Shown here: in pieces, positions 1 to 54,544 of the stretch
How the letters are laid out: every line of letters starts with the position of its first letter
Numbering within the stretch: position 1 is the stretch's first letter
From: Verrucomicrobiota bacterium
GTDB taxonomy: Bacteria; Verrucomicrobiota; Verrucomicrobiia; Opitutales; Cerasicoccaceae
Assembly (NCBI GenBank): GCA_039818205.1
Contig: JBCBUK010000001.1
Span: 384,001-448,000 of the forward strand
DNA length: 64,000 nt
Reading direction: 5' to 3'
Position numbers and translations under genes: made by a program
Notes under the pieces: model-generated
Seen by the model: the letters and a program-made list of their open reading frames with translations, nothing else
Databases searched by the model: none
Told to the model about the DNA's origin: nothing

Positions 1-3000
1 TATTGCCAGCCGTGGTCTTTAAACCGCCATTGACTGTAATCGCCGAACCCGCTGCCAGGAGCAAGTCTGTCACCGCTTCGACCTGTCCAGCAATCTCAAG
101 CGTATCAACTGCCGTTACGTTAATCGAACCACCGGCGAGTATTGGACCGTTGACCAAGATGTTTGCCGCATTGATCGACGTGTCGGTGGCGCTGGTAATT
201 CCACCACCACTCAGGTCGAAATCGCCACCCGCGTTGATAGCCGTTTCAGCACCCGAAACGATGCTTCCTGAAATCGAAGCCGACGTCGTTGAGGTCAAGA
301 CTGCCATGCCACCAGCATTAACCGATCCTTCAACCGAGAGACTATCGTCAGAGCTAACCGATATATCGCCGGTCGAAGAACGGATGTCACCTGAGATTGA
401 GACCGCAAGCTGACCATTGATCGTCACTGAATCGGCGGCAGTGAGCGCGCCATCGATATCGATCAATCCATCGGCATTCACGTTCAACAGGGCTCCTGCA
501 TCGACGCCGCCAGTCACCGAGAGGTTTTGACCGCTCCGCAATGTAACGTTGGCTCCACCATCGATCGATCCACCGATTGTCAGGGCACCAGCGGTATCGG
601 CTGTGATGCTTCCACCCGCCTGCATCGGACCATTGATTAGAACCCCGCTAACCGCATCGACGAGGATCGAGCCATTCGCGCTAACACCGCCGCCAGTCAG
701 AGTGAAGAAGGTTCCTGCAATGAGGTTCGCATCGCCACCTGCATCAATGTCGCCACTAATTGAGAGTGCTTCTGTCGCCGTGATGCCAGCGCTTGAACCA
801 GCATCCACCGAACCATCGAGATCGACGTTTTCGGCCGAGACTATTGTTGAACCCGCAATGGAAGCGATGCTTCCGGTCAAGCTAAGGTCACTCGGCGTGG
901 CGAGTATTACCGAAGTGTTTGCCGAGATGTCACCAGCAATGCTAATCGCTTGGTCGGCTTGGACGTCTATCAATCCTCCTGCGTTGATCGGGCCACCTAC
1001 CGTTAATTCTGCCGCAGCAACAATTTCGACATTACCGTCGGCGTCAACCCCACCGCCAGTCAGTGCAATGTTCTCGCCAGAGAGCGAAACGTTTTCGCCG
1101 GACTGGATGCTGCCAAGGATGTCGAGATCGTCACCTGCATCGAGCGTGGCTCCAAGACCAGTCGTGACGGACCCGATTAACTCGATCGCATCAACCGCGC
1201 TCAGATTCGCTGCTCCCGAGAGAGAGCTCACGTCGCCCGCGATCGTCAGACTAGAGCCGCTAACTAAATTCAAGTTGCCGGCCACTGAAGCTTCGCCCGC
1301 AACCGATAATTGACCATCGGTCGTGATCGCGAGTTCGCCACCAGCAGTAATCGCCCCGTCGATTGAGACGCTTACCGGAGCAGTGATCGACACATCATTT
1401 CCAGCGTCAATACCGCCGTCGACCAGCGAGAAACTAGAACCGCTCTCGGCAACAATCGATTGGCCGGCGGCCAAGCTACCTTCGATAGCAATGGCCCCTA
1501 GCGCGTTGAGCGTGAGATTCGTCGCCGCTTCAACCGCGCCGCCAATCGTAAGGTCGGATCCCGAATCGAGTGTAACCTCGCCCTGCTGAGAATCTAAACT
1601 ACCAGAGATGGTCAGTGCGGCACCCGCATCAAGAACAAGGCCCTGACCAACCTCGACCGATCCAGAAATCTGTAGGCTGCCATCGGTCTCCCCGGTTAGG
1701 CCGCCCGCAGCCGTAATCTGTCCACCGATCGTGGCACCGCTTGTGGCAAGCAGGTCAATCGATCCACCCGAGCTGATTCCACCGCTCGAAAGCGTGAACT
1801 GACCTTCCGTGGAAATGCTTACCGCACTACCAGCGCTGACCGCGTCTTGAACCTCGATCAGGTCATTCGCCGAAAGGACGAGAGTTCCACCGGAGTCTAG
1901 TGCGCCGGAGACCAGAATTGTTCCGTTGGTCGAATCGAAGCTCAAAGAGCCACCTGCGGTCACTGAACCGGAGACCGAAAGCGCGTCATCAACGACAACA
2001 TCAACTGAGCTTGTCGAGTCAATGGACCCACCAAAGCTCGCCGATTCAGCTACAACGCTAACGCTGTTCGCATCCAAGGTTCCATTCATCGCAAGGGCAC
2101 CACCTGCGTTGGCATTCAACGCACCAGCGACCACTAGCGGACCGCTTAAGCTCAACGTTGTATCTGCCATCAAGTCAAGTGAGGCGCCCATCGATGCGCC
2201 GCCCAAGATGGTAATCGATTCGGCTTGAACCAATGAATCTGTGCCGCCCGCAATGGACTGTGCGCTCAAGGCATTCGTCGCAGTGAGTCTCAGAGCGCCG
2301 GCCGTGGACGCGAGTGCTGCAGTGGAAACCAATGAGCCTCCCGAATTGATCGTTAGATCATTTCCAGCGGTGAGCGCTCCGTACAACTCAAGGTCACCCG
2401 CAGTGTCAATCTCGATTGCGCCACCTACCGATAGCGTCTGTGCCAGAGTCGTTTTGGTAAGTGCACCCGCCTTCAAGCTGACTTCCGTCGTTGCGACAAG
2501 TGCTCCCCGAAGGTCAAGAGCACCCAGCGCGTCGAGATGCAGCCTCGTTCCGGCCGCAATCGACTCGCCGAGTCCCAAATGGATATCCCCTGCCGCATCA
2601 ACGTTGACGGCCTCACCGGCGACAAGGTCACCTGAAGAGGTCAAAGAACCACCGATCACCAAACCAATCGACCCTGCCGCATTGAGTGAGGCCTCAAGGT
2701 CATCCTGTTCATTCAGAACAATGGATCCCGCGGAAGCGGTTGCCGCAATCACTTGCAAGGCGGTTTCGAGTTCAAGGATCGCGTTACCTGCGACTGCGTT
2801 GAGTTCGCGAGCGACAATGTCGGCTTCACTATCGTTACCAAGCTCCAGGATGGACCCACCTGCAGCCAGATCGATACTACCCGTGCTACCCGCATCAACC
2901 TCGTCGACTAGCAGGTTGCCACTAGCATCAATACGAATCACTCCGCCAGCTGATGTGGCTTCGCGAATCGTTGCGTCACCCTGTACAACCACATCAATGA

Positions 3001-19700: not shown

Positions 19701-22700
19701 CCAACCTTAACTATGCCTGAGACAATAAGGCTGACATCTTCTTGACCCGAACCGGCATCAACTTGAACCGAGTTCGACGCGTAAAGATTGCCGCGGATCT
19801 CTGCCATATCCTCCGCGTTGATGACGATGTCGTGCGCCGTAATGCTTGAGCCCGTTGGCGGCACCGGAGCGTGAAGCGACTCGATATCGACCAGCATCTC
19901 GCGAGAATGGAAAGTGACATCGTTTCCAAAGTCGCGCACCTGATCTTCATAAAATTCGACCTCACCTTGAATAGTGATGGTGTCGGCGATGAATTCAGCG
20001 TCGTCGCGGAACTCGGCGTGACCAAAGTAGAAATCGTTGGCGATGCGGTTTCCGTTGCTGTCGAAGCGGCTGAAGTGAAGCTTAGCAAATCCATCCTTGA
20101 GCGCCGCTAAGTCTGTCGTATCGAGATCCAAGGATTGGGATAGATCGATCGAACCACCTGAGTAGCCGCCAGCAAACTCATCGAGTCCAGTGAAATCCTC
20201 CGCGGCCGTACCAAAGGTGTATTGGTAGGCTTCCGTCGTGGAGCGAACGTAAAGGTTGCCCGTTGCGATTATGGTGTTGGCACCGGCATTGAACTCCATG
20301 TCATCGGCCATCAGTGCGATGTCCTTGTTAGGGGCATCGGCCCGCAAGGTGCCCGACTGGAGTGTCAAGAGCGATTCAGCATCGATCAGGTCAATGTCAA
20401 CGTGACCGAAGGAGGAAACGATACCCGTCGGATTATTCACACCGTCCAGGGTAAGGTCCTTGGCAACAATTGTCAGGTCGTCGGTTTCCTCAACCCAGAT
20501 GTCGGCCCAATCGCTACCGCCTGCTTGATCAAGATCGGCGGTAGTCGAAAGCGTAATCGTGCGGACAGTCGAAACGATTTTGTCGGTGAAGCCCATTGCG
20601 CTAAGTGCGAGATAACTGTTGGCTGCACGGAAAGTTGCCGCGTCGAGGTCAAGCGTGCCAAGTGGCACTTTGATCTCGATGTATCCGCTGCCCTGCTGAT
20701 CATCATTAACGCCACTGGAAACACTCAAACGATTATTGAGATCGGCGACCGCATTGGCCCCTTCGAGGATAATATCAATAAAGCCATTACTGGTGGCATT
20801 GAAGACATCGTAGACTGCCAAGTCGCCTTGCTCGATACGCCAGATCGAATTGCGATAATCAATTCTGCGGGTGGTCGTCATGCTGCCAGCCATCACGTGG
20901 AAAAGACCCGATCCAGCCACGGTTGCATCCAAAGCAACGTGTGTTGCGACATCCCACTCAATGTCAGCTGAGACGATCGCACCAAAGATCTCGACGGCAT
21001 TGGCAACAATATCCCATAGCGAGGTCGAGTTGAAATCACCGTCAACCACGGCAGTCGTGGTGATGTCCCAATCCACATCAACCGTATTCGCCGTTCCTGA
21101 GAGGTTGAGTGAATTCGCATCAACATCCCAGAATTTCGAGGAGTTGAATGTGCCGTCCATTGTGACGCTATCCACCAGGTTCCAAATCGCATCACGCGTC
21201 TGAATAGTCCCGGAAGTAACGAGAGTTGTCGCGTTAATCTCCCAGAGATTGTTCGAGGTAAAGTCACCAGTAAGCAGAACGTTTTCAGCGATGTTCCAAG
21301 TCACATCGTCGGCATTCATGCTGCCATTGAAAACCAACGATACCGAATCCGCAGTAAAAGTGGTGGCCTCAACCCGACCGTCGATCGATATACCGTCGAG
21401 AACGTTGAAATCAATTGTTGGCGCTTTGACCAGCGGTGCGTCGATGTCGATGAACTCGGCGTTGACAATAATCGAGGAAAGCGCTTCTAAACTGGCGTCC
21501 GCATCGAGCGTTTCCAGCACATCGACGAAGATGTTGTTCGCCTTGATATGGCTCAGCGTATTGACAGTGTCCGCGATAAAGCGGATGTCGATGTCACCAA
21601 GATCGGAAATTCCATTGTTAGTCGATCCAGTCGTGACGCGAACATCTCCACCGAAGTCAACGACATCTCCGATAAAGTCACGTCCATTAAACTGGGCGCC
21701 TTTACCAATCATTGTCTGGCGCTCGATGTCACCGGAGAAGTTCAAAACTTCGCGGCCGTTGCGGATCTGATAGCGATTCAACTCAACGGCAGCCAAAGCA
21801 TATTTCTGCTCAGCAATAACTTCATCGAAACCGCCAGTGGTATCGAAAATGTTGACGGTGCCAATGGCCTTCGGGCTCTGAGCAAGTCCGAGCAGAGCGC
21901 GATATTGATCGTTACCTCCCGAGTCGGTGAAGTTAAGGACATCCTCGCGGAATTCATTAATCAGGACAAGGTCATCACCGGTTCCAAGAACAACGTCGTC
22001 AACATCCGCCCGTTGGGCTCTGATCTCACTGCCATCGGAAGCGAGAACCGTTACTCCGGAGCGAGAGACGGTGACAGTCAAGTCATCCGATACCTCGCCA
22101 AAATCGAGGGTCACGATGCCATCGCGGTCGGTGAAGCGATCACGGTCAAATCCGTCGTCGAAGTAGTAGGTGTCATTGCCTTCTTCACCGCGGAGATCAT
22201 CGACTCCTAGACCCCCATGGATTTCGTCGTCGCCAAGGCCAGCAATAATCCGGTCCTCACCAGCATCACCAAAGAGCAAGTCGCCCGCCGAACCACCGAA
22301 GATCTGGTCATCGCCAAGGCCGCCATGAATTTCAACTGCTGCGGTTGCCGCCTGAGCGTCGATGATGTCGTCGCCTTCACCACCGTCGGCGCTTCCACCA
22401 GCCTCACCAAGAAAGATTCGATCGCGGCCTCGGGATCCAGCGACTTCGACAGTAACATCGCGCAGTCGTGAGGCATCAAATGTGTCGTCGCCTTCGCCAA
22501 GATCTACGACGATGTGCTCGACTTCGCCCTTATCGAAAATCTGTACCCAGTCGTTGAAAATGACGTAAACACGATTGCTGTCACCAAATACCTCGAAGTT
22601 TTCACCGCCATCGATCGTGTCAAAGTACTCACGTTTTGAGGCATCGGGACCGGCATTAATGTGGAGGGTCTTGCCTTCCAGACGGCCCAAAGTCGGCTGA

Positions 22701-25700
22701 GGGAAGGCTGCCTTATACTCAAACTCGAAGAGAGTCGCATCCACCAACGTAATGTTGATGATTCGCTTCATGATCTTTCCCACGAATGGGATCTTGATTC
22801 CGACGTCCACGAACGCGCGGATCTTGAGGCTCAAATCACCATCAACATTGATCAAGTTTGCGAGCCCACGGTTCTCAAACTCAAAGAGCGTCTTAATCTC
22901 GGATCCGCGGATCTTGCCGTCGCTCTCAAAATCCTGACCATAAACGACGCCATCGAAGGTAAACATTGTATCGATGCGGCCGATAAGATCGTCGTAGTTG
23001 GCGGCACGATTACCGTCCTCATCAATCAGCTCATAAAGCGTTGGAATCGCAACGTCCTGGAGGTCCAGGTCGACGTTTAATTCGAGTAGACCTTCCAAGC
23101 CCGCCTCGACAACGACAATGTTGATTGCTGCAGCCAAACCGATGTGAGCACCAAAGCTCAGTTCCGGTTTTTCTTCAGTGAAGTTTGAGGCCACCGACTT
23201 ATCGGCAACGAAGAAACCATCGAATACCTTGCTTGCGTCACCGGTCTCAATGGCCTTGCGAATGCCAAAGGTATCGTAGCCGAATGCCAGGTCCGCGGTA
23301 GCATTGAATCCGCCAAAGGCGTCGATGTTGAAGATGACCGGGCCAAGCGGGAACGTGACGAGCGTTTGACGGAAATCAAAACCAACCGAGAGTAGCGGAA
23401 GCTCGTAGGTAAACAGAGTCGCATCCCCACCAGTGAGCAACTGAGTCCAGTTGCCAATATCCCAGATGTAGTCGAAGCGGAAACCAGAGCGGGCCTCGCT
23501 ACCGGTTGTAACGCTGCCAGAGCGCTCCGTGTTCGGGCGCGAATTATTGAGCGCCTTGATCTCCTCAAAGCTTGCGAGGCTGACGTCCATGTCGGCCTGC
23601 GTGGCTTGAACATTTCGCGTTCCAAGGCCTGCGATGTTCCCCAAAAGGATCTCACCATCGACACTCAAGAGCCCATTGATCTGATCGACGAGGTTAAGGA
23701 AGTTCTGAACCTCGTAGACGAAGCTAAAGTCAACCGGCTTCTTGCCCTTAAGTTTCAGAGCAAGATTGATCAGGCCAATCAGATTAGGCTCATCCAAAAT
23801 CTTATCCAGACCGGCAATACGCGCCGTTAACGTATCAACGACCGGTCGGAACGGATCCAAAACATCATTGATCTCGTCAACAATCGGCTTGAGGAATTTC
23901 GAAACAAACGAACCGACATCAATACGAAGATTTTGCAGTCCAATATTTGGCGTGCTCGCGCCATTGGCGAGATCCCATGCCCAATCGACGACAAAGTCAG
24001 CCTTCAAGGTGGGAAGACCACTCGCACCTGCGATTGCCAATTCGATGCCAAGGTTCAGATTTGCATCGAGTCCAAAATCGATATCGAATGTGTCGCTGAC
24101 ACGGCGGCTAAAGAGCTCATCGATTGTCAGGCGGCGGTCGTCGACCTCGTCGGAATCGTTCGGGTTACCTCCGAGAATATCAATGCTGAGTCCGCCTCGT
24201 AATCCGCCCGCTTGGAAACCTGCCCGGTCTGGATTGCTATCTTGATCTTCAACCGTCGCTTGGAAGAAGAGCAGCTGACCGGTTCCGGTAAAGCGAGTAT
24301 TGATGCTTGGGTCCAGGGGCTTGCCATCGAGGAACACATCAACGCCGACCTCAAGTTCCGCCTGGGTTGGATCGACACCGAGGTAGAAACCGTCCTTAAG
24401 CGAAAGACCGAAATTGAAGTCGAACATCCAATCGAGTTCGAAGGCAAAGCCGCCATCGATGTCCAAGCTAAGACCGGGCAGATCGAAGGCTAGCGGAATG
24501 TCGATACCCGTGCTGAAGAGCGTCGAACCAAGATTTAAATCAAACTCGATCGCATCCGCATTTTCTGGGATTTCGTCACCTTCTTCCCAGTCTTTGATCC
24601 GAACTGCATTCTCGTCGAACCAGATCGCGATAACGTCATCCTTGGTGACGCGGCTGTCACCATTGTTGTCGAGAATGATATCGAGGCCGGAGGTGCCAAA
24701 CAGGTCCCATAAGCTGTCGCGGATCACTTCGATAGCTTTTCCATTCCCGCTAAGCTTTTCGCGGAGGTCCGAAAGCAAACCATTACGGATGTCGGAAAGG
24801 AATGTCGCGGCCTTGGCCAGCTTGTCGCCAACCAGTGGAATATCCTGGGCGAGACTGGAACCAAAAATGTTTTCGAGACTACCCAGCGCAAGGTCAACGC
24901 CATCAAGAATCGAGGACGGGTCGTTGAGAATGCCCAACAACGAGAACTGTCCACCCTGTGCTTCAAAGATGCCCGAGAAGTCGATCGGCGTAAACTCAAG
25001 GAAGCTCGAAGCGCCACCGGCAACGCCAGATTGAAGTGAGTCAAATAGGCTTCCAATCGACTGATTGTCGAGCGTGCGGAAGCGCATCACGTTGTCCGAA
25101 CCCAACGGAACATCAAGACCAAAGACCGACAGGCTCACCGGCAACTGAATATCGAGCGCGCCCGTAAAGTCGAAGTCGAGTCCACCGCTGCCGTTGAGGC
25201 TGACAAGCGCTGAAGCAAATCCAGTCGAAAGAAGGCCGCTATTGACGTTCGCCGCCGCGACGGTGTCGGGGTTGCCATCCGAGTTGAGGACGACCAGTCC
25301 ATCGCGGACGCCGACATTCAGCTCACCAAAGCCAAATGCCAGTGTCAGGTCTTCGCCAAGGATACGGGCTCCAACTTCAACGTGGGTTCCCGCCAAGCCC
25401 CCCGAATTTGGGTCAAAGTTCGGATCGAACTCACGGAAGAAGATTTCTGGGCTCGTAGTATCCGAGAAATCGATGCCGATATCGAGAATCGCATCGACGA
25501 AGGCTTGGAACTCAACAACGGCTCCCGCGTCCAGGAAGTTGCTCAGGCCCTCGAAGAATGATGCATTCGATGAACCGACCAGTGTAGCCAGGGTTTCCGC
25601 ATCCAGGTTAAAAATGAAGGTATCCGAGAAAAGTGCTCCAATGTTAAAGTGAACGTCGAGCACTTCTCCGTTGAGCGCGAAACCAAACTTCTGCTCATGT

Positions 25701-28700
25701 AGCGGCTTGGTATTGTCGTCGTTGATTCCCAGCGCCTGCTCAATCTTGGCCTCAACATCCTGAATCGCTGCCACCGGATCGTTGGCCACTTCTTCCAACG
25801 CAGCCGAGAAATCGCTGATGAACGAGAAAACGTCTTCGAGCGATGTGTTCACGACCGGAATCTGGGTCGTGTAGAATGGCATATCAGCCAAGGTTTGATC
25901 CAAGAAATCAACACCGTCGCGAATCGCGCCAATGATTGTTGCGAAATCGAGATCCTTGAAGTTTAGCTCGGTTGGGAAGTTTGGCAGAACCACCTCTACC
26001 GTGCTAAAGTCCAGCAAATCGGGGATGGTAATCGATAGCTCTTCCTCGGCTGGGATATCGACTTGGAATGGGCCAGCTTCAAGTTCGAAGCCGCGCAGAA
26101 CCGCTGCCGCATCACCCGAGAAATCAAAATTGAAGCTATCGAATAGATCTCCATTGATCAGATCGAGGAACGTGAAGAGGCGATCGCCCTCAGTCTCAGA
26201 GTTCAGATCCCGATCCAGTGTAGCCGTTGCCGTCGCATTGAACGTAAGGTTAGAACCGGTTTCGGCACCGCCCGCTGCAATGCGAGCGAAGCCAAGAATG
26301 GCCTCTGCACCGAGTGCTTCCGACTCGGGTGTGCTTGGATCGTCGGCAATCTCAAAGTTCACATCGCCGGTCACCTCGACATTATCGATCATCAGCTCTG
26401 GTAGCCCTTGAGCCGAGAAATCGATGACCAAGTCAAAACCACCAGCAACCGTTGTATCCAGATTGACCGTGCCTTCTGGATTGATCTCAAGCGGACCAAG
26501 ATCGAAGTCAAATTCGAGCGGTAGATTATTGATCGGAGCCAGCGCGAGACCGAATGCAAATGGCATGCGGAACTGCTTGGTAACGGGATCAAACGAAACT
26601 GATAGACCGTCGGGAAGAATACCGGCACGGTTGATCGAATCAATCAACTCGTCGAGCGTGCGGATCTGCTCAATTGGGCGATGGACCGCAAAACTTAAGA
26701 GTGTGAGCGCGGCGTCTGCCGTGTAAGCGATTCGGATATTCTCACTATCGATAAACTCTTCGACCCGGAACTCGCCGATACCATCGAGCGTTATACGCTC
26801 GCCAGCCATCTCTTCGGTGAACGCACCACCAGCCGAGGTAAGGATATCGCTGCCTTCGGCCATCGAACCGTTTACCGCCGCAAAGAGGTCTACGCGTGGA
26901 CGATTGAAATCGATTTTCGAGAGAATCTGGTCGTCGAAGGCGGTCGCAAAGTCGAGGATATCGCCAAGCTCGACTCCGATGAATGGGATCTCGGTGGCAA
27001 AAAGATCCGCTTCGCGGAAGTCGCGGAGCCAGGCCAAAACGTCCTGGATCATGATGATACCATCAACAACACTGAAATTCGAGAAGTCGAGCAGCTCGTC
27101 GAAGTTTTCCGTGCTGAACTCGAGACCATCGAACAGATCGCCCTCAAGGTTGATGCGTGGTGTATTATCGCGGTTGAAATCGATACCGGGCAACGATCCG
27201 TAGATCGGCAAAGACACGTCGAGACGATTCTCGCCGGGCTGGAATCCGAGCTGACCATTGACCAGGCTAACCGATCCTCCCAAGGCCAAACCAACTTCGC
27301 CCTTGTCGGCACCTTCGCGGCCAATGCTTACTGCAAGTGGCCCGACTTCCGCGCCTAGCACAAAATCATCGGAGTCGATATTCGCCTGGAAGCCGAGATT
27401 GGTGAGATCGAAATCGAAATCTCCCGTTTCGGTGTTCAGATCAATGTCGAAAGCGACATTCCCAGTAACGTCGGCCAAGAAATTCGCATCTCCGGTGAAG
27501 CGGAAACCGATCGCCTCAATGTCCTGACTGAGGGCCAACTCCATCAGTGTCTGATAGGTAAAGTCTTTGTCGAAGGAGAGGCTGAAGCCCTCTTCGGTCA
27601 GGTTCCAAGTCAGGTAGTCGCCCGCTTCACCTTGGAGGCTCGGCAACCATTCTGCCTCTAGGTATTCGAGCAAACCGCCGATAGACGGTAAACCGTTCTC
27701 GTAGACTGGAGCAGCAAAAGTCTCACGGGCCGTACCGCTTGGATCCCGTCCGAGAACTGGGTCGACGTAGCGCTTGATGAAGTCGCCGACACTGAGAATT
27801 TCGGTAAGGCCAAGAATGTCGTCGAGCGAGGCATTAAACCCTGGCAGTTGGTTCGAAAGCGGGTGGTCAGAAATCTGCTGACCATTGTCGTCGAATCGTG
27901 GTTCAATCTGATCCTTTAGATCCAATACCTCGTCGGCTAGCTGGTCAACGTAACCGGCCACCAGCGCGGAGAGGCTCAAGCCCAGATTGTCGAGACCCAG
28001 TGCTGACAGACCGAAGAGATTCGGGTCGAGCAACGATAGCGATTCAAGTGTACTGTAGGTGACCTCTCCCAGGTCAGCCAAATCGAAGCGACTCAACAGG
28101 TTGTTGTCGATCAGGTCGGCCAGCGTTGCCGTTCCGCTATTGATCAGCTCCTGCGCGTCGATGATCAACTGATCCGCCAACTCAGCGGCAGTAGCCAGAC
28201 CCGCGGTGGTCAAATCGGAAAGTGCAACCTCCGCGTCAGCGAGCAGAGCGTTAGCATCAATAATGCCTTCGCCCACTAAGTCTTCGATCGTTGCAACGCC
28301 GTCCTCAACTAGGCTCAATACACGGGCCTCACCCAGCGTGACGAAGTTATCAATAACCAGCAATCCGGAATCGGCAAGCTGAGCGAATTCGGTCAGCGCG
28401 CTATCAAACAGATCCTGAATCACAACCGTGGCATCGGCAAGAATGTCCGTAGCTTCCAGGTAGCTTTGCGCAACCAAGCCGGAGGCAATAGCGGCGTTCT
28501 CGGATATTAGGTCCAGCAGTGCCGCAGCGCCCAGGTCCTTAAGATCGCCGACCGCGATCAATCCATTGGAGAACACTTCGCTAAAATCAGCTAGGCCAGA
28601 GGCTATCAACTCAGCGAGTAAGACGTTCCCGGAAGGATCTACCAAACCAGCGTCCGTGAGCTCGGCGTTGGTCGCTACACCGGCGCTAACAATGTCGGTC

Positions 28701-31700
28701 GCAGCACGGAACGCGGTGCCGGAAATTTCAGCCGCAGTGACGCGTCCGGCGTCTACCAACTGTTGCAGCGTGACCGCGCCACTGGAGAGGAGCGTGTCAA
28801 GGTCTTCCGAACCGAGGTCGGCAAGATCACTCACGAGGATCAATCCAGCGTCAACCAATTCGGCCAAGGTGCTTTCACCCGAAGCGATCAGTGCCGCCAG
28901 ATTCGTCTCGGCGTTTGACTTCAGGTCGGTGATTTCGACGAATCCGCTAGCCACCAAATCGGCAATCGCCGCAATACCCTGCTCGACGAGTGGTAGCAAA
29001 GCGGTGAAATCAAGGTCGGTAAACTGTTCGACGCTCAGTAGGCCATTAGCAGCCAATTCACTCAGGCTAACGGTTCCTGCGTCCAGGAGATCAGTGAGAT
29101 TCAGATGGGCAATGGCTTCAAGCTCAGCCTGAGATGCAACCCCGGCCGCAACAAGCGCATCAACACTGAGTCGGTAGGCAGCGTCGATATCGGCCGCAGT
29201 AATCAATCCATTCGTGGCGAGCTGGGCCAAATCCAGGAACTGGACGGCAAGCAGATCATCGAGATCGGCTTCATTGGCAAGACCATCGAACAAGTTGAGG
29301 TTTAGATAGCGGAGGCTAGCCAATGGAGCACCAGCGTCACCGCCAATAAAGTTGTCTCCAACTTTCGCGTAGATCGGCAGGTCAACATCGACGCTCGCAT
29401 TTGGCTCGAAGACTAACTCACCGCCTTCGTCCGCAACACGTGCGCTCAAGGCCAGAGCAACCTTGCCCTTCTCTCCATCCGGTGAACCAATACTTGCCCC
29501 GAGCGGACCAAAATTAACGGCAGCAAAGAGTTCTTCGTCGGATGCGACAGATGCGCCGAGGAAAAGCTCGTCAAAGTTGAAGAAGACATCCGGGCTACTG
29601 GGATCGGCCAGGTCGATGCCGAACTCGAAATCAAGTGCGGCTTCGAGATCTAGTGCAAAATCGAGATCACCCTCGAGATTGAAACCAGCTCCTTCAAGAT
29701 CTCCAGCGATGTCAAGATTCACGTTGCGGCTGAAGGCATAATCGCCATCAAACACCGCCTTAAAGCCAGTCACCTTGCCTTCGGAATCCTTAATCTGAAC
29801 GAAGCTCAGTGGACCAACACCCGTCGAGGCGTCGAATCCTGGAAGCGTTGGCAACCAGTTTGCGGTCAGGTAGTCGATCAAGCCCGTGGCGATTGTCACC
29901 TGAGTCAAGTTTGAGAACGAGCCGATCGAGTTTAGGTAGGCAACAACGTAAGTATCGATGTTGAGGAAGGCCTCGAGCCCATCCCCACCAAGCAGGCTAT
30001 TGATCGAGACATCGGTGCCGAAAAGCTGACGGTCCAAAATCCCGCTGCTCTGAAGCGACTGGAGCAAGCTTGCTTTGAGCGATGAGACCAGATCGGCAAG
30101 CTCTTGCAAGGCGGCTTGATAGGCAACGGTATCAACCGCTTCGCCAATCGAGCCGATAATGTCCGGGAAGGTGAAAAGGATTGGGTTTGGTCCGGTCGCC
30201 GCACCGGTCAACGCCTTGAATAGTTCGGCGAGGCCATCGGTGCCATTGGCCGGATTGCTTTGAATACGCAGGTTAGGCTCAAGCGGAACTTCGAAGCCAA
30301 ACGCATCGACCACCACAGGCAGCTCGAGATCGAAACCACCGCGGCTTTCCAGATCAATGTTGTCAAACAGGTTTTCACTAAAGCGATAGAGGCCATCATC
30401 ACCAGATCCGCCGTCGCCATCGAGGACGAACGAGATCGCGGCAAAATCGCTCCGGTCGTTTTCATCGAGCAACTCAGGGTTCGTCGTTGCATCGCCGTCG
30501 GCATCGATCGTAAAGCGACCGCCTTCAGTCGAAATGGCCACGATGTCATTACCCAACGACATGCTTAAGTCCGTTCCGAGAACCTTAAAGCCAGCCTCAA
30601 TCTTGGTGCCATCGTTGAGACTCTCGTCAAAGTCATAGAAGAAGTTGTCAACCGGCTGGCCCGTTTCGCGCGGCCCGAGATCGACGCCATACCGGACATC
30701 AAGGCTCGCAAATCCCTTGATCATTACGCCACCGTCCTCAGTCGCGTCGAGGCTATCGATACCATCGAGCTCGGAACCCCCCTGCCCCGTCGCTGCCTTG
30801 AACGCACCGAGATCAAGTTTGAAGTTGAACATCTTCTCGAATGCGACGTCCAAATCGAGGTCGAGGCGCAGAACGTTGCCCTGCATGTAGGCACGGAAGA
30901 TATCCGTGTCGGTTTTGATATCGAGCCCGAGCTCGTCCATGATCAATCCGATCAACTTCTGAACATCATTCTCTGGGTCGAGCAATGCGGTTTCGACGGC
31001 GTCCACCGCATTGGTGATTTGCTGGTAAACGTCAAATATTTCGCGTACCGAAACGCCCAGGCCGGGCAGTTCCATGTTGTAAACGTCGACCGGCAACGAC
31101 TCATCGGTAATGAAGAATGGCAGCTGCGAAAAGGCCGAATCGATGTGATCACGGATACGACTGATACCGTCGAAAATGTCTTCGAGTCGGAGGTATTTGT
31201 AGAAAGACCAGATACCGGGAAGCTCCGATATATCGAGCTCCATATCAGCAGCATTATCGAGATCGGTAACGTTGAAGCTGATCGTAACTCCATTTGCTAC
31301 CGGGATGCCGCCCAGGCCAGTCTTCACCTTGATGCCGCGAAGTTCTGCATCGGCGGATCCGGACAAGTCAATGGCGAAGCTTCCATCCGAACTTCCATCG
31401 AGAACGCTTTGTAGCGCAAAGCGAGTTTGGCCTCCGGAATCAAGTGTTGCGACACTGCGGAAGTCCGTCTGCACCGTGCTTTCGAGACCGGATACATCAC
31501 CCAGTGTAACGCCAACAAATCCGAGACGACCCGAAGCATAGATCTCGCTCGCATCAAAGCTGACATCTCCGCTCAAGGTAAGATTGTCCAACTCCCAGAC
31601 CAGTGTTCCATCGCCGGTCGGCCCGTCGAGATCGGCGATGAGGTCAAAGCGACCACCCACTGTCGCGGCAATATCGACCAATCCATCCGTTACTAGGCCA

Positions 31701-34700
31701 ACGAGGTCGAAACCATAGTCATCCTGTAAATTAATATCGAGGTTCTGCAGACCGAATGGATCGAAGTCGTATCCGTCAAAATGCCGGATACTGATCAAGC
31801 CCAACTCGAAAAGATCTCCAACGGTGAGGAAACCTTCCTCTAGGATGTAATCCATGTCGACCAACTCGCCGAACTCCGAATCAACAATTGGGCCCAATCC
31901 AAGCACTTGTGCGAGCGGCACGGGCTCAAGATCAAGGCTATCCACATCGATCAGTCCAAGATCATCAAGATCTGCATGAGTGATCAGACCTGCGTTCGCC
32001 AATTCAGCAGCCGTAATCAAGCTACTATCAAGCAGGGCAATGGTATTGACGTCGTCATCCGGGCCAACAAGGCCAGCAGATTCCAATTCAGCCTGAGTCA
32101 GTGCTGTACCGGTAGTCAACTGCGTAACGGTGAATGACTCGACGGTGCCAAACAGTTGCTCGCGGGTGACCGCTCCTAAGTCGAGGTAATCCTGTAGCCT
32201 CAATACACTGCTGTCGATTCCAGCTAGCGTGATCTGGTTAAAGGCAGATGCCGCAAGGTATCCGCCTGAAATCAGCGCATCATAGCTTGTCAAACCTTCG
32301 TCGACCAAACCAGTAGTCAGCACGCGATCCGACAGCTGCCCAGCGCCGACCAAGTCAGCAAAGCTTGCGAGTGAGGCATTGATCACCGTCAGGGCGTCGA
32401 TCTCATCGACCATAAGATCTTCAGCGATCAAGTCACTAAACACGAGCGCAACTTCATCGACCAAGGTCGTTGCCGCAATGGTTTCCGTCGCGAAACCGGC
32501 TCCGACCAATTCCCCGTATTCGATCAGATTATTCGCCAAGATTGAGCTGATCGTAACTGGATTATTCAGATCGATTCCAGCATTGGTCAGCGCAGTGTTG
32601 GTCGTCAGGCCAGCAGAGACCAAATCAGCTGCGGCAATTCCAGTGTCACCCAAAACACCCGCTGCAACCAAGTCATCGAAAGTGGTCAAACTTGTGCGGA
32701 GTAATTCTTCAATCGAAACCGTCCGATCATCGACCAGATCGCTCGCACTCAAGTCGGCATCGGTCACTAGACCTGCGCTGATCAACTGTGTGATCGAAAG
32801 TGTATCGGACACAATACCGGCACTAATCAAGGCATCAATCGTTGTGATGCCATCGCCAATCAGCGATTGAGCCGATTGCGTTCGGGCTTGCGCGAACAAC
32901 TGATCAGGCGTCAAAGCGCCACTTGCTAGTAGCAGCATCAACTTCTCGCTCGTGAGGTCAACCGAACCAAACAGCGCTGCCGATGGATCCAGCAGACCCT
33001 CGGTCGTGAGGAAGTTCAAATCCAACAGGCCAAGCGCATCAAAGTCTTCTAAGCTGAATCGGTGTAGATCGAGGGTAAAGTCGATTGGCAGAACAATCTC
33101 TTGAGTCACCGGATTGTAGCCGACTTGCTCACCTTCCAAGAGAACACCTGAGGCGTTGATCTCGCTCGCTAATGCTTGCAAAGTGCCCGCTGCCTCAAAA
33201 TCAATCTGCGAGAGGACGAGCAACTCAAAGGCGAATCCAAAGTCGAGCACCTCGCCGAGGCTTTTTTCCAGATAAGGAACGCGCTTGTTGAATAGCTCGG
33301 TTTCGTTGACCGTGGCCAACCACTCATCCTTGATCGCGTTTAGCTGGGTCTCAAAGTCACCAACACGAAGCTGGGCAAAGTCACGCAGGTTATCGAAATT
33401 CTCGAGATTTAGCGGTCCGCTTGTCGACGGAAGCAAGTCGCCACTATAGCGGATGCGAGCATCCTGGCCGAGGGTAACATCCTGACCGGCCAACTCTGCG
33501 AAGACCGGTAGGTTGATGTCGAAGGCACCAGTTGAATTCGTATCGATTGTGTCCGAAGCCAGCACGAGGGTCGTGCTGCCATTGAGGCTCAAGCTAGCTG
33601 AGCCAAGATCGCCAGGCGTACCAATCGAAACCTCTAGATCGCCAATCAGGCTATCGAACTCGAGGCCACTCGCGAAAGCGGTTATCAAGATTTCGTTGCG
33701 GAAGCTCAGCCCCTCGGTTCCAGAGAAGCCATCGAGATCGGCAACAAACGTCAAGTGGGCGTTGACCGCTCCTGAGAGTTCCGCCAGGGCGTCGCGCACC
33801 AAGTCACTGATCAGATCAGCATCCGCACCAGTTGCACCCAGATCAAATTGGTCCAGCTCGCCTAAAGCCAGTGGAATATCAAGCTCCACCTTCAGTTGAC
33901 GGGTAGCACCGTCGTAGGAAGCGACCGTTGCTGGTACGGCTGTTTGCAGCGCCGAAACGAAATCCTGGACCGTGTCAATTGTATCGAAATCAATCAGCGA
34001 AAGGACGTTTGTTTTGAAGGCGTCATCGAAACCAAAGATGTCTCCAATCGAAGCGCCCAGCATTGGTATATGAGCGCTGAGAAAATCATCTTGCTGCAAC
34101 GTTTCACCCCACTGCCCGACCGTCTGGAAAAGCTCATTTAGGTCCGCGACCGCTAGTTCTGCAAAGTAAGCAAACTCCTGGAAGTTTTCGGCATTGAACG
34201 AAACCGCCGATCCCAGTTGGCCATCGAATACATCGCCATTCAAACGGATCCGTGGCTGGTTTGCCGTTAAGTCATGAATAGCAGTACCGGCGAGTTCAGC
34301 GTATATCGGCAGGTTGATGTCCAGCGAGCTATCTGCCGAGACACCATAAACACCCTCGGCCAAAGTCAGGCTTCCGTTAACGTCTAGATCAAAGGAGCCC
34401 AATTGAGCGCTGGATTGCCCGAGATTCACCGCCAGATCTCCAACGCGGGCAGGCAGCTCGATATCGCTGCGATCGACTTCAACGGTGAAGTCAAACTTGT
34501 CGACCGTGAGGCTTCCGATTGGCATATTGTCTGCCCATCCAACGGCGATCGTGAAATCCAGATCAGCGGTAACGTCCAGATCCAGGCTCGCGGTCTCCTC
34601 AGCAGTTAGGCCAAGCGCCAACGCTTCATCACCAAGAACGAGCGCCGCGCTGCGCGAGTAAGTGACCTCATCGTCGATGCCAAAGGTAAAGCCAGTGATC

Positions 34701-37700
34701 TTGCCGTCAGTCCGCTGGAAAGTCACCTTGAGCGGGGCTGCCCCCAGGAGAGCACCTCCAAAAAGCTGGCTGAACCAGTTGGCTTCGAGGTAGCTAAGCA
34801 AACCTCCGATGCTTGGCTCTTCATCCTCACTGAATGGGATTGGATCGTCCGCCGGGAACGGCTGGTTTGGATTGAGCGAGCGGAAAAGGTAATGGTCGAT
34901 GTAGTCACCCAATTGCGTGAAGACAGTCACGTCCGTCAAATCACCCAAGGTCGCATTGGTGCCTGGAATCGCCTGAGTGAGGATCTCCTGAACGGCGGCG
35001 GTAAAGCTCTGTTTGAATCCGATAAGGTCCGCCGATAATCCTTGCAGCGCCCGAGAAAGCTGATCGATAACCGCCTCACGCTCAAATGCACTCGTGGCAA
35101 TCGCAACGGTCATATCGAAGCTACCTAAGCGGGTGCGCACTTCAGCGAACGGTGAGGAACCCGTCGAAACGTAGCCACCATCGGTGATAAACTCCGAGCG
35201 GCTACGACCAATATCGGCAACTAAGTCGGTGGTGACCGCCGAGAAATCGAGAATACCGCCACTGTCGTCCTTCAAGCGGTCATCGCCAAAGTTGTTTCCA
35301 AAATAAAACGTATCGATACCCGTACCACCGTCGAGCGAGTCGTCTCCAGTGCCACCAAAAATCGCATCCCAGCCAGCACCTGCTTCAATGCGGTCGGCAC
35401 CCGAGCCACCGATCAATACGTCGCCACCGGAGCCGCCAAAAATATCGTCGTCACCCGCTGCGCCTTCAATGCGGATGCCACCAACCGAACGGGAACCGTC
35501 GAGTTCGTCGTCACCAACGCCACCGCGCAAGATGCTACCCGAGCGCGTTCCAGCGATCAAAACATCATCACCAACGCCGCCGTCGAACTCGACAGCCACA
35601 CCACTCAGGCCAGATGCATCAAAGGTATCATCACCTTCGCCGCCATCGGCAACCACCTTATTTACGTTGAAGTAGGTGGTGGTGTATTCGCCATACTGCA
35701 CGGTCACGGTACCGCCCGAGCCCGAAAGCGTGTATGCTTCGCCACCGTCCTCGGTATCAATGTATAGGCGCATCCCCGCGCGAGATCCTGTGTGCAGATA
35801 GAGGGTTCCATCGGCTTCACGATGAGCCAATACAGGCTCGACATCCGGCGCTTCAAAACTCCAATTAAAGAGGTCGAACTCGGCGAGAGTAAGTTCCCAA
35901 TCCTGCTCAACTACGAGCAAATCAACATAGGCGAAGAGAAAAATTCGGGCGCGTAGCTCAGCGGAAAGGTCAACCAAGTTCAACAGACCGCCGAGGTCCT
36001 CCAAGTCGAACACACCATTGTCTTCCGGCACGTTGCCGTCGATATCTGGCGGAGTGTAATTGAAAAGAGTCGCGACTTCCGAACCACGGATCTTTCCGTC
36101 GTCGTTAATGTCGTTCAGGTCGATCTCGCCTCGGAAAATAATCTCACCGGCGGCACCAGCACCGGCGATCCCGACACCTACTCCACCCTTCAGTCCAATG
36201 TTTGCATCGATGATGAACTCAGGTTGATCCTCAGTTCCATCCAAACCGAAGTCCGAGAGGAAGAAACCGTCCAACAACCACGCATAGTTGTTGTTTTCCA
36301 GTGCCTTGCGTGCACCAAAAGTATCGTAACCAAAGGCGAGGTCTGCTGTTGCTTTGAATCCGCCAAATGCGGCAATTTCAATCGGAACGGGTCCCGCCGC
36401 AAAGCGGCCAATGATCTTGTCGAAGCTGAATTCAACTTCGAGCAAGGGCATCTCATAGGTAAAGAGCGTTGCATCCTCACCCTGAAGCAGCTTTGCCCAG
36501 TTGCCGATGTCCGTAATGTATTCCAGGAACTGGAAACCCCGGCGTTCGGCAGTCGCTTCGCCACCACCGAGACTCTCTTCTTCGATCTGAACAAGCCCTT
36601 CCGACAACGTAGAGCTGCCTACGGTGCTGAACTTGCTGGTCCACTGGACATCGCCCGTGGCCAAACCAGTGATATCACCGAGTAAGATGACACCCGTTGG
36701 CTTACCGGATCCATCGAGCTGGAAGAGCTGATTGATTCGATCCGGCAGGGTCAGCATGTTCTGAGCGGCATAGACAAACGACCAATCAATCTGGTCACGT
36801 CCCTCCAGATTATTTACGAAATTGATGATCCCCAGGATGTTCGCATCATCCTCTTCAAAACCGATATCAACCAGTTCTGGAATTGGGTTGAGAAGCGCGT
36901 CAATGAAGCCGCGGAATGGCTCCAAGTTTTTCGCGATCTCAATGACGGTTGGCTGGAGGAAGTCCGTTACCAGGCTGCCCGCATCAACACCAAGGTTAGT
37001 GATGCGCAGATTCGGGGCGGACAAGCCGGTGTCGTCGTCATACGACATATCGAAGCGCAACTCACCGACGAGCTTCGGAATAAAGTTTGCCTCGGGAACG
37101 GAAAGCTGAAGACCAAGATCAACATTGGCCGCAACGTTGTAGTCGAGCTCGATGACATCCGAGACCTCACGCGCCGAAATAATGCTATCGAGAGTCAGAC
37201 GGTTGCGCTCATTTGTGCCGCTCTTCAGGTCGACGTTCAATGTTCCAAAGAGGCCGCTTTGCCCTGGATTCAAATCGCTAACGGCGAGTTCCAAGAAGCC
37301 CAGGCTACCAGAACCAGAGAATGGCGTGATGGCACTTGGATTCGTCGGAGACCCATCGAGGTAAACGGCAACATCGACACGAAGCTCAGGATCTCCGGTC
37401 GGGTCTCCGGAATTAGCCGCGTCTGTCGGGTCATTAAGCGTGAGGAAGAATCCGTCTTGGACACTGAGTCCAAATCCGAAGTCCAGTTCCCAGTCCAACT
37501 CAACACTGACGCCACCATCGATATCGAGACCGATGCCAGGCAAGTCGAAATCGATTGGGATATCAACACCGGTATTCAGAACCGTGCCACCGAGTTGGAA
37601 ATCGAACTCCAACGCCTCGGCATCTAGTGGTGGCAATTCGTCTTCGACCCACGCTTCCGTTGAGCCGTCGTCCAGGCGCCAACGCAGCGCCACATCACCT

Positions 37701-40700
37701 TCGTCGGCAATATTGTTTCCATTGCGATCGCGTAACACACCCAAGCGCGTTCCGAGTACGGTTACGAGAGCATCGCGAATGAACTCAGCAGGTTGCGTCT
37801 CGTCGAGTGTTTGCTTTAGCTCAGCCACGAAACCGCGGCGGATATCCAAGATAAAATCCGAAAGGCTGTAGAGGCGCTCACCCATTAGCGGGATATTTTG
37901 AGCCAGGCCACCGCGGAGAACATCCTCAACCGCGCCCAGAGCAAGATCAACGCCGTCGACAATGTAGACCGGGTCGTTAAGGAGCGCAAGGATTGAGAAA
38001 TCGCCTCCGAAGGCTTCAAACGTGCCCACGACATTACCGAAATCGAAGACCACTGCAGGCGGCTCGTTCTCTGGCAATGGCTCCTTGCTGGCCAGCTGCT
38101 GCAGCAGTGTCATCAGGGCTTGATCACCGTAGAACGGATTCGTCTGGATAACGATCGGGTCGAGCTCAAGCGAGGTCTCCCCAATCGTCATAAGCAATGG
38201 GAGCTCAATGTGAACGCTACCCAACAGTTCCCATATGATATTGTCCGAAATGCTCTCGCTGACGCGATACTTGCCATCGTCACCCGGGGTTCCCGCACCT
38301 GTCAGGAAGATCGACAATTCCGCAAAGTCGTCGTCAGTAATCGAGGAGCCATCGCGATCAATGATAATCTGGCCATCTGCGACTGCCAAATTCAGTGGGC
38401 CAACCTTAAAGCCCAAATCCAACCCGGTGCCGATTACGCGAGTGCCCAGAGTCAACCGAGTGCCCTCGCCTGTCGCAGCACTGTAATCGTATAAGAAAAC
38501 GTCCGGACCACCGGGTGAGGTCAACGACTTCAAGTCGATACCGAGATTCAAGATGGCCTCAATCTTTCCCCACAGTTGCAGGTCGGCCGACGCACCAACA
38601 CCAACAAGATCGGTCAGTTGCTCAATATTGTCCAGGTAATCAAGATTGTCCGCACCGGAGATATCTTTGATCGCCGAGAGATCGAGGTTGAAAGTCACCA
38701 GCGAGGAAACCATCCGTGACCAATCGACATCCACCTTTAGGACGTCATTATCGATGCTCAGCTCGAAGTCGTCATCCGCAAGACCCAGGGCGTCCTCGAT
38801 GATTGTTTCAAAGCCTTGGATCAAACCACCTTCTTGGTCAGCTGCCGCCTGAATTTGCTGGGCTAGCTCGCTCGTAAAGTCGAATACTTCTTCCAGGGTG
38901 ACATCGAGTCCCGGAAGACGAGCATCGTAAAGTGGCGTGTCGCTCAATGAATCCTCAACAAAGCTCAGCCCAACCTGAAGAGCCGCAACTACGTTGTCGA
39001 AGGTGATGTTTTTAACATCGAGCAAACTGCCGAGATCCGGGAGGACGGTGGTTGCCGTAGAAAGATCTGAAAGATCAGAAATCGAGATTCCGATCGTCTC
39101 GCTTTCGTTTACGAATAGGTCGCCGAAGTCGGAATCAACTTTGATTCCCTGCAGCTGAGCGGAAGCCGCGCCGCTATAGTCAAAGTAGAACGCATCACGG
39201 AAGGTATTACGGACCAATTCGCGAAGCCCAAAGGACTGGTCGTTGGTCGTGTTAAGATCACCGTCGAGATCTAAAGCCGCGACCACACTCGCATCCAAGT
39301 GAACCCCGGAGCCATCAACTCCTTCGCCGATAGTCAGACCCAGGCTACCGAGTCGAGCCTTGGCGACAAAGTCCTCGACGTCCAACTTCGTATCCGCACT
39401 CAGGCGGGCACCCTGAACAAGGATTTCGAAATCGCTGTTATTGTCCGCGCCATCAAGGTCAAAGACCAAGTCAACGGCGGCATTGACATCGATACCCAAG
39501 GACGCAATGGCCTCAGTAGTTAGCTCAAACAGATCTGCATCGGACAGGTCGAGTCCAAGATCCAAGGGCAGATTATCAAACGGAGTCAGCGATGCCGAGT
39601 AGCGGATCGGCAGGATAATTTGATTCTCAACGGCATCGTAGCTGACCTGTGCACCATCTGGGAGCACCAGCTTGTTCGCAACCTCGACAAAAAATTCTTG
39701 CAGATTGGTAACGTTGCTGAGATCGAGCTTCGAGAGATACCCTTCGTTAAAGGATTCTGCAAAGTCGACGACGTCACCGAGGTTAACCCCGGCAAATGGG
39801 ATCTCGACGTCAAAAATGTCGTAGCCAACAACGTCGCTCAGCCAGAGCGAGATGTCGTCCAGCGCGACAAAGAGATCGGAAACTTCGAAGCGAGAAAAGT
39901 CTGTTAGGCGGTCGAAACCGTTTGCTTGGACGTCGACACCGCTCTCACCTGCTCCCGGGAAAAGCTTGCCCGCAGCAGTTACTCGAAGGTCCGTTCCCTC
40001 GGACAAATCGACACTTCCAAGCGAAGCGGAGATCGGCAGGTTTATATCAACGTTGCCGTCAAAAATTGGTGAGAACGCGCCGCCGGTGTAAGAGAAGCCA
40101 CCGGTCAGATCAATCGCCGCCGTGCCTTTCTCGGCTCCTTGGCCGACGCCGACCGCGAGTGGTCCTACAGCCGCATCAAAGGTAAGGTCTTGGGAATCGG
40201 CGCCTGCGCCAACAGAGAATTCATTGAGGTTGAAACTCGTTGCACCCGTGTTGAAGTCCACCCCGAAGTCGAAATCGACCGTGAAATCCAAATCGAAATC
40301 AACTGTTCCATCCAGGGTCAGGCCAAGGTTCTCCGCCTCCTCACCCAAGGCGAGACGAGCAGTCCGGGTCGCGGTGTTATTAGCGCGGAAAGCAAACGCA
40401 ACGCCTGAGGTTGTGACCGACCAGGTGAGCGCAAAATCGTCCTCTGAAATGAAGCTCAGCCACTCGTTCGAGAGAAAGTCGATGATCTCGGGAAGCGTTG
40501 GGAGCGCATCGCCAGTCTGCCAGGTCGTTGGATCAAATTGTTCGAGGTAACGTTCGAGGGCATCCCCCACTTCGAGGTAGCGGTCAAGACCACTAAAAAG
40601 CTGATTGAGCGTCAGATTTGTCCCCAGGATCTCGGTGTCGAGAATGTCCTGGAAATTAAAGTCTGCGAACACCTGCTGAAGCTCATCAGCAAGATCCAAA

Positions 40701-53799: not shown

Positions 53800-54519
53800 C
53801 TAGACTGGCTGTTCCGCGTCAGGAAACAAGGCGTCTCGAATCGCTGGGCGGATTGCATCGTAGTCATGATCTGGACTCAGTGGCTTCCAACCGACGCCGT
53901 CCAGGTAGAAATCGTAGTTTCTGAATCGGACGGATTCTGGTGTCACGTCATTCATCCCCTCAAACAGCGGTAAACCTTCGCTGAGCAGGTGGGACCCCTT
54001 CGACAGGCTGATAAGGCCCATGACAATCGTTTCGTCATTTGGACCATCAGGAGCCAGGTCGCCGCAGGCGCGCGCCTGCGCCATGATCTCGTAGCAGGTG
54101 CCCATGCATTGCGCTGAGGCTTCCTGCCACCCCAGCTGCTGGGCCTCAGCGGTTTTCTCCCAGAGCGATTTCGTGCGGGCAAGCTGCATTACCTCGAACC
54201 CATTGCAGATATGATGGGCGAGGACTTCATCAGCAATCCCGATCGCACACATACGCTCACGCGGCGGGCCATCATGGGTCAGCGCGCGGGCGAAATACTC
54301 TGCCCGGCGTCTAAAATGGTCGACCGCCACGGCCAGGACGAGATCCTCCTTGTTTTTAAAGTGATTGTAGATCGTGGCTTTCGAATATTCGATCGTCGCG
54401 GCAAGCTCATCCAGGTTAAGCCCCAGATACCCGCCAGCCGCCAACAATCGGTCAGCCTCACGGATAATTAGCTGGGTTCTTTCAGCCCACTCACGTTGTT
54501 TTCGTGTCAGGATACTCAT
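53800..54519 (-). CDS. TetR/AcrR family transcriptional regulator
   Basis: Helix-turn-helix GYLGLNLDELAATIEYSKATIYNHFKNKEDLV. Divergent from the RND genes. Confidence 0.93.
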   Translation of the reverse strand: MSILTRKQREWAERTQLIIREADRLLAAGGYLGLNLDELAATIEYSKATIYNHFKNKEDLVLAVAVDHFRRRAEYFARALTHDGPPRERMCAIGIADEVLAHHICNGFEVMQLARTKSLWEKTAEAQQLGWQEASAQCMGTCYEIMAQARACGDLAPDGPNDETIVMGLISLSKGSHLLSEGLPLFEGMNDVTPESVRFRNYDFYLDGVGWKPLSPDHDYDAIRPAIRDALFPDAEQPV

Positions 54520-54544
54520 TTAATTTCGAATAAACATTCACGAG

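Follow-up and report, generated by a model that had tools for sequence, protein, structure and literature searches.

How are bacterial proteins of 10,000-20,000 residues exported when they have no Sec signal, no two-partner secretion (TPS) domain and no C-terminal type I secretion system (T1SS) signal? We address this wider question from one locus, a 64,000-nucleotide stretch of a Verrucomicrobiota genome (assembly GCA_039818205.1, contig JBCBUK010000001.1; G000:C1:384001-448000 in our genome coordinates), referred to throughout as the window. It carries most of a giant open reading frame (ORF) and, upstream of and divergent from it, a cassette of export-type genes. On balance we favour the reading that the giant is an acidic fibre protein of the LEPR-XLL class, lying outside the cell or on its surface, and, most likely, the single cargo of that cassette. 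The more interesting point is the clean one-to-one pairing of the giant with an orphan 'secondary SecA' cassette. The N-terminal LEPR-XLL tag, its protein class and the adjoining cassette are all features beyond the first-pass annotation of this DNA, which had drawn attention to the frame itself.

That annotation proposed a hidden minus-strand frame of at least 14,245 codons, open from an ATG at 42736 to the window edge. An ORF listing that admits open-ended frames returned exactly this (2..42736, minus strand; codons 1-14,245, stop-free), and its omission from the default track was traced to a listing that skips frames running off the source. The protein is, as had been anticipated, longer than the window: upon translation of the whole contig, the frame continued without a stop codon or an N until C1:377972, which puts the stop 6,028 bases ahead of the point where the window begins, to give a complete ORF of 16,254 residues (G000:C1:377972-426736, minus strand). 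The full-length product has a mass of 1.69 MDa, a net charge of -1770 and an isoelectric point (pI) of about 4.05, with 15.6% D+E versus 4.7% K+R, in line with the strong acidity first claimed for it. The restriction of Cys to the leader, originally read from parts of the sequence, now holds over the full length: there are two only (residues 9 and 13), both ahead of the LEPR motif. The description 'among the largest bacterial proteins' needs tempering. The size is in the far tail, but across a survey sample of 401 genomes of the same phylum five LEPR-XLL frames exceed it (16,521 to 20,466 residues).

Neither an in-frame stop nor a frameshift was found on full translation. A 29,313-nt Logan contig from run X1, which spans the most repetitive 20 kb of the giant gene together with the stop codon, matched with 0 differences and 0 gaps at a word depth of 35.4; as X1 is possibly the source sample of the assembly, this match shows that a second assembler concurs and does not supply independent data. 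DNA repeats within the gene are as scarce as first reported (the direct repeats form just two families, both weak, and the sole array, of 27-nt units in 2.7 copies, is an RTX nonapeptide block), and mis-joins are unlikely because such repeats are too few to cause them. By self-comparison, the protein-level repeats are diverged, with no more than about 50% identity, consistent with the earlier view of old, diversified repeats rather than a recent tandem expansion. We conclude that the giant frame is a genuine, intact gene. The contrary explanation, that the frame arose in assembly or survives as a silent relic and its protein is never made, can appeal to supporting reads that come from one run, possibly the assembly's own source, to the list of sequencing runs matching the stretch, in which no RNA run appeared, and to the region upstream, where we found no clear Shine-Dalgarno sequence and where a sigma-70-like promoter scan, uninformative for this phylum, gave no match. 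It can hardly be right, given that chance cannot yield a stop-free 48.8-kb frame, that two assemblers concur without differences at a depth of about 35, and that many genomes retain the same N-terminal motif, fold and gene neighbourhood. About 50 nt past the stop codon there is a terminator-like hairpin (11 pairs, 7 of them GC, followed by a T-run).

The N-terminus begins with a polar, basic leader (residues 1-40; 42617..42736, minus strand; from translation and hydropathy) that holds both Cys, followed by the LEPR-XLL motif region (residues 41-61; 42554..42616, minus strand), which starts FELDQLEPRILLSATPTG. The motif was recognised by the NCBIfam model NF012209 (LEPR-8K, 'LEPR-XLL domain-containing protein'), a 24-position model with a curated cutoff of 17 bits, at 24.8 bits in the protein scan and 31.4 bits in the genome scan. 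With the motif above cutoff at residues 41-61 of 16,254, and with an acidic, repetitive body behind it, the giant can be placed by its sequence in the annotated LEPR-XLL class, as a new member and a very large one, and frames of 10,000-20,000 residues are common in the same phylum. What is held in common with that class is the tag of ~20 residues alone; the bodies differ, and the name LEPR-8K suggests proteins of about half this length (16,254 residues). A word-indexed homolog search with residues 1-1500 gave 0 matches among proteins of 5,500-17,500 residues. In the available text of the literature, 'LEPR-XLL' appears in print only in passing, for a Vibrio protein of ~8000 residues and a Limnohabitans protein.

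To define the leader more closely, we compared 36 candidate N-termini from other genomes, of which 33 were LEPR-type, two DUF4347-type and one a false match. The common plan is a polar or basic lead of 1-92 residues and then phi-x-(L/I/V)-E-x-L-E-x-R-phi-(L/M)-L-S-(A/G). When 43 leaders were aligned, E47 and R49 were invariant, and E44, L46, L52 and S53 nearly so. No hydrophobic core was found in residues 1-70 of the giant, where the top 19-residue hydropathy is 0.55, nor was a transmembrane (TM) segment found anywhere in the protein.

The distribution of the tag was then set against that of the cassette, using the gene for its M50-HlyD fusion protein (described below) as the marker. LEPR-XLL frames occur in 29 of the 401 genomes, this one included. 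M50-HlyD relatives occur in 93 at E <= 1e-10, with scores that are clearly bimodal: orthologs above 450 bits (34-44% identity) are present in 29 genomes and the remaining paralogs score below 312 bits. The two sets, each of 29 genomes, have 27 in common. Only two genomes have the cassette alone, and one of these (G222) has a LEPR-type frame beside the cassette that the profile missed (L026). In 19 genomes the LEPR frame and the ortholog are on one contig; for 13 of these pairs the ortholog is 2.1-13.7 kb from the motif, and for a further 5 it is on the 3' side of the giant, no more than about 5 kb from its end. The present genome is 99.97% complete, and NF012209 matches nothing else in it.

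The make-up of the cassette follows the same split. Amongst 30 strong-ortholog loci, the order HlyD-GAF, M50-HlyD, SecA-like was seen in 27, with a SecA-like gene in 28 and an outer-membrane factor (OEP) in 26, whilst the weak-paralog loci had a SecA-like gene in 0/7. In named genomes we found 597 M50-HlyD relatives and examined the neighbourhoods of the best 80. These best 80 of 597 came from Verrucomicrobiota, Lentisphaerae, Planctomycetota, Desulfobacterota, Fibrobacterota, Comamonadaceae, Gammaproteobacteria, Magnetococcales and Sulfurovum, the closest (55%) being from an Opitutales metagenome-assembled genome (Verrucomicrobiota). Of the 63 loci long enough to include a SecA-like gene downstream, 55 have one, and HlyD-GAF precedes in 68/71; a LEPR-type large frame was present in the flanks of 15/80.

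As a separate observation, a second LEPR-XLL frame begins about where the first giant ends at G044:C5, G377:C29, G035:C142 and G060:C1; in one example, the first frame has 19,033 residues (start near 26177) and the next, at 83201, has 5,558. Judging by these frames, tandem cargo genes seem to be common, this window having one only.

The three cassette genes lie on the plus strand. The first encodes a GAF-HlyD periplasmic adaptor of 482 residues (44111..45559), with a cytoplasmic GAF domain (78-180), a TM segment (221-239) and then HlyD domains. The second encodes a PqqD-like/M50-type intramembrane metalloprotease/HlyD fusion of 718 residues (45566..47722), with HELAH at 210-214, NPLLKFDG at 306-313, about 6 TM segments and a periplasmic HlyD region (447-718). 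Its catalytic residues are invariant in 32/32 orthologs, and its N-terminal half resembles the intramembrane HExxH proteases that cleave the leaders of daptides and other ribosomally synthesised and post-translationally modified peptides (NF041824, E 5.8e-49, below cutoff). PqqD is the top Pfam match in the first ~100 cytoplasmic residues, at the same place, in 6/10 M50-HlyD orthologs, and is above cutoff in one (23.7 vs 23.4 bits). The third gene encodes a short SecA paralog of 676 residues (47674..49704; Pfam SecA_DEAD, SecA_PP_bind and P-loop_SecA), which keeps the preprotein cross-linking domain and the ATPase motifs: Walker A GEGKT at 144 in 28/29 orthologs and DEAD at 267 in 26/29. Set against solved SecA chains (765-844 residues), its alignment covers residues 40-603 of these and the paralog stops 12 residues beyond that point, and no wing/scaffold family was among its Pfam matches. 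The canonical SecA is elsewhere (a 1,046-residue frame on contig C9). Converging on this adaptor/protease/SecA operon from the minus strand is a gene for a TolC-family OEP of 617 residues (49738..51591; Pfam). There were no ABC family matches in the 14 window ORFs scanned.

The GAF-HlyD protein has 482 residues here versus 603-674 in orthologous frames elsewhere, counted from the first possible start; either an N-terminal extension is missing here or the other starts are over-called.

A locus of this composition was described from computational analysis by Kamneva, Poudel & Ward in 2015 (PLoS One, PMC4452313): a secondary SecA_DEAD protein, Peptidase_M50/HlyD, HlyD, GAF/HlyD and sometimes OEP, without an ABC transporter, occurring in Verrucomicrobia, Planctomycetes and Proteobacteria. 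Their proposal was that the SecA paralog is the ATPase and the M50 protein a possible pore, with the role of the locus 'completely unknown'. The available text of that paper names no cargo, with 0 occurrences of 'giant', 'cargo', 'adhesin' or 'large protein'. The cassette in the window corresponds to their locus in having a second, wingless SecA_DEAD protein besides the canonical SecA, adjacent M50/HlyD and GAF/HlyD genes, OEP and no ABC transporter. It differs in that it stands head-to-head with a probable cargo and in that the pairing has been quantified. Our literature search, with subscription journals outside its coverage, found no paper that names LEPR-XLL proteins as cargo of the secondary-SecA locus. 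A further precedent is the preprint of West-Roberts et al. 2023, the available text of which reports predicted bacterial proteins of up to 85,804 residues and SecA DEAD domains without scaffold and wing in giants of Omnitrophota and some actinobacteria. In those giants, as here, a very large protein is tied to a SecA-type ATPase that lacks scaffold and wing. There, however, the SecA domain is inside the giant, which has many TM segments, whereas here SecA is a separate protein of 676 residues and the giant has no TM segment.

Weaker M50-HlyD paralogs have partners of their own. In genomes without an NF012209 match they adjoin large DUF4347 proteins that begin MYQLEDRILFD, which is an LE-x-R-x-L motif as in the LEPR leaders, here right at the start of the protein (L037:2-4525 and L038:3-3953, minus strand; neighbours L037:6835-11207 and L038:4066-11076). 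The partner genes are for a short HlyD (~280 residues), a HlyD (~470 residues) and OEP; neither a SecA-like gene nor an ABC transporter is among them. Going by sequence, these DUF4347/M50-HlyD loci look like a sister system.

Peptidase-containing ABC exporters of leader-bearing bacteriocins combine an N-terminal leader with a protease built into the machine, as here. The cassette protease differs from theirs: in place of a C39 domain there is an intramembrane enzyme of the M50 type that carries a PqqD-like domain. The giant RTX adhesin T1SSs (LapA/LapBCE, SiiE, MpIBP) offer another likeness, namely HlyD adaptors and a TolC-family channel beside an acidic giant with RTX nonapeptides. Compared with either, and with the T1SS components as summarised in section 17 of Kamneva et al. 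(PMC4452313), the cassette is distinct in having a wingless SecA paralog as its only ATPase and no ABC transporter. The giant itself does not have the hallmarks of a classical T1SS RTX adhesin: there is no RTX near its C-terminus and no dedicated HlyB-type ABC exporter, its signal would be N-terminal rather than C-terminal, and its RTX blocks are internal.

With no Sec signal, TPS domain or C-terminal RTX signal, with a conserved N-terminal tag and with the machine adjoining, the simplest reading is leader-guided export, N-terminus first, by a tripartite system that has no ABC transporter; that is, the cassette probably exports the giant. A fuller scheme is more tentative, and may quite possibly prove wrong: that this is an envelope-spanning secretion system of a type not described before, with the giant as its only cargo and a SecA-less sister version serving the DUF4347 giants (L037, L038). 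In the mechanism proposed for both, the LE-x-R-x-LLS leader would be bound by the PqqD-like domain. The chain, still unfolded, would be driven N-terminus first by the wingless SecA-like ATPase through HlyD adaptors and TolC-family channel, with no ABC transporter involved, and the M50 protease would take off the leader during export. Outside the cell, calcium-aided folding would pull the chain out, leaving the N-terminal part of the body (zone A, below) distal and a beta-helical stalk proximal. A signal at the N-terminus would let export start whilst translation of the 48.8-kb message is still under way.

What the exported protein would look like is indicated by its body. Pfam is nearly blank over the 16,254 residues, with two weak RTX (HemolysinCabind) matches; self-comparison divides the body into two zones, A and B. 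Zone B occupies residues 7,055-14,245 in the window (2..21574, minus strand) and continues to about residue 16,046 outside it. It is predicted to be a right-handed beta-helix of the filamentous haemagglutinin (FHA) type, in which each coil takes up about 20 residues and a longer super-period spans about 122, broken by non-solenoid gaps (e.g. residues 9,570-10,476). The AlphaFold model is a regular three-sided beta-helix (predicted local distance difference test (pLDDT) 96.7), the best structural matches of which are the secreted adhesins EtpA, HMW1 and HxuA. Sequence relatives of the zone are named filamentous haemagglutinin or CdiA, 17/21 of them having PF05860. It is thus well supported, on model and matches, that the C-terminal half would form an FHA-type beta-helix rod, roughly 170 nm long. 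The extended fibre of the first-pass annotation therefore stands for this half of the protein, with an adhesin role plausible, whilst the suggested surface-layer role found no specific support.

The homology of the rod to TpsA/FHA/CdiA repeats also gives room to a different account of export. The giant could be a real secreted fibre that leaves by another route (a distant ABC-type T1SS, or Sec and an unrecognised two-partner transporter), with the cassette processing or regulating it or serving another substrate. Such a route could draw on the four full-length ABC exporters found elsewhere in the genome, the best of which scores 391 bits to the HlyB-type model TIGR01846; this one is on another contig, the model cutoff is 725.55, and no ABC exporter passes that cutoff or sits near the giant gene. 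A search for TpsB (PF03865) matched nothing here, nor in any control genome, and the cassette has no recognised inner-membrane pore, both of which leave this account some scope. The likeness to TpsA exoproteins (FHA, HMW1, EtpA, HxuA, CdiA) is in the beta-helix of haemagglutinin-type repeats. The giant differs from them in having neither an N-terminal TPS domain (no PF05860 in residues 1-700 at E <= 1, or in 1-4000 at E <= 0.01) nor a Sec-type hydrophobic core, in having another N-terminal tag and in being three to four times longer. As the RTX blocks are internal and not C-terminal, and as the cassette and LEPR-XLL frames co-occur and adjoin across phyla, we regard another export route as unlikely and retain export by the cassette as the preferred reading.

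Zone A (residues about 470-6,900; 22037..41329, minus strand) is by self-comparison a mosaic of diverged modules, with one module of about 165-210 residues in about 12 irregularly spaced copies. It contains a segmental duplication in which residues 1570-2520 match 5920-6900 at about 45% identity, each copy with a GGxGxD block. Block 1 (residues about 2365-2476; 35309..35644, minus strand) was identified as an RTX-type GGxGxD nonapeptide block by motif scan, Pfam and the repeat array, and block 2 (residues about 6785-6856; 22169..22384, minus strand), its duplicate, by motif scan and self-comparison. Over the whole protein, GGxGxD motifs are at residues 2365-2470, 4109, 6785-6841 and 12512; the last 3,700 residues are free of them, and HemolysinCabind was not found in the last 2,008. 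By their motif, the RTX-type blocks are putatively calcium-binding. Zone A is rare: a 1,200-residue piece of it had just 60 relatives at E <= 0.001 in 1.84 billion representative proteins, the best at 36% identity. The zone A module profile matched 0 other giants among 607 large frames of the studied loci. An atlas search for look-alikes returned unnamed clusters only for zone A and no usable match for the solenoid gap. Residues about 4,500-4,900 (window about 28000-29200, minus strand) have a strong 11/22/33-residue periodicity, unlike the rest of the zone.

The C-terminal end of the giant bears on another alternative. In the last 2,008 residues Pfam found Fil_haemagg_2 (31.2 bits) and a FapA beta-solenoid. 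The last ~200 are non-repetitive and not common to five other LEPR-XLL giants, and amongst the closest relatives of the rod are CdiA toxins, as well as haemagglutinins that carry a toxin domain at the C-terminus. Together these raise the prospect of a CdiA-like device for contact-dependent delivery or antagonism rather than an adhesin, in which an FHA-type stalk presents a C-terminal effector. Two small family-less ORFs and genes for a secreted-type nuclease and a lipase downstream would also suit such a device; a terminator-like hairpin, however, parts the giant from these ORFs. Family searches of the C-terminal 400 and 2,008 residues matched neither toxins nor pretoxins, the tail being acidic and unremarkable, and N-terminus-first export would leave the C-terminus nearest the cell, which argues against effector display. 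We therefore consider delivery of this kind improbable, and export as a cassette-dependent surface fibre remains the preferred reading.

The first-pass annotation had looked ahead to a C-terminal anchor beyond the window. The complete protein has no C-terminal TM segment, and a BLAST comparison of its last 700 residues with the tails of five other LEPR-XLL giants found no similarity, so we rejected a shared anchor. Separately, the last ~22 residues of the giant (G000:C1:377975-378040) end ...GGFLDSALAVLNFFGWGK and the L031 giant ends ...SGWKRSLESVLSFFFKL, whilst three other LEPR-XLL giants end ...RGL or ...KGL; tentatively, LEPR-XLL giants may have a short amphipathic C-terminal tail motif.

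Several observations weigh against a giant fibre exported by this cassette. No inner-membrane pore is recognised among the cassette genes, a gap already raised in the available text of Kamneva et al. (PMC4452313), and the PqqD match of the window's own M50-HlyD protein is weak (13.2 bits, E 0.12). The pairing is also imperfect. Two LEPR-only genomes are without a strong ortholog, G231 (a weak 636-residue match) and G398, the latter with a 253-bit M50-HlyD directly after its giant; 148 kb separate the cassette of G060 from the closest LEPR frame; and the SecA-like gene is missing downstream in 8 of the 63 loci with room among the best 80 relatives. The split into strong and weak orthologs was chosen after the bimodal scores had been seen, and the co-occurrence counts include related genomes and are hence non-independent. 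For the fibre itself, the structure prediction for zone A has no confident fold (pLDDT 66.1), and the length of ~170 nm uses a general value of 0.48 nm for the rise per coil rather than one measured on the model.

Other genes near the giant appear to be of less direct concern. An FGE-sulfatase-like gene (43139..43939, minus strand; Pfam) lies between the giant and the cassette, and adjoins also in the closest relatives (L062, L082, L010), not elsewhere. As a candidate modifier of the giant it was rejected: there is 1 [CS]xPxR site versus 0.85 expected, and the neighbour is present in few loci. Downstream of the giant's terminator (L001:8018-11570, minus strand) are the two family-less ORFs (142 and 216 residues), and after them, on the same strand, a DNA/RNA non-specific endonuclease gene and a class-3 lipase gene; these could be secreted enzymes or unrelated. 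At 53800-58806 the window carries an ordinary TetR/HlyD-type adaptor/AcrB-family RND efflux operon, apart from the SecA-like system. In a synteny comparison for gain or loss of the block with two same-family genomes, the Lhr helicase marker was not found and the other marker was just 33-34% identical.

LEPR-XLL proteins have a curated model and no assigned function, and the secondary-SecA locus has had no known role since 2015. With one tag-bearing cargo, one cassette head-to-head with it and no other LEPR-XLL protein in a nearly complete genome, the locus offers a clean case for asking whether tag and cassette belong together. As an example of haemagglutinin-type repeats joined to a different export signal, the rod is also of interest for the evolution of giant adhesins through the exchange of modules.

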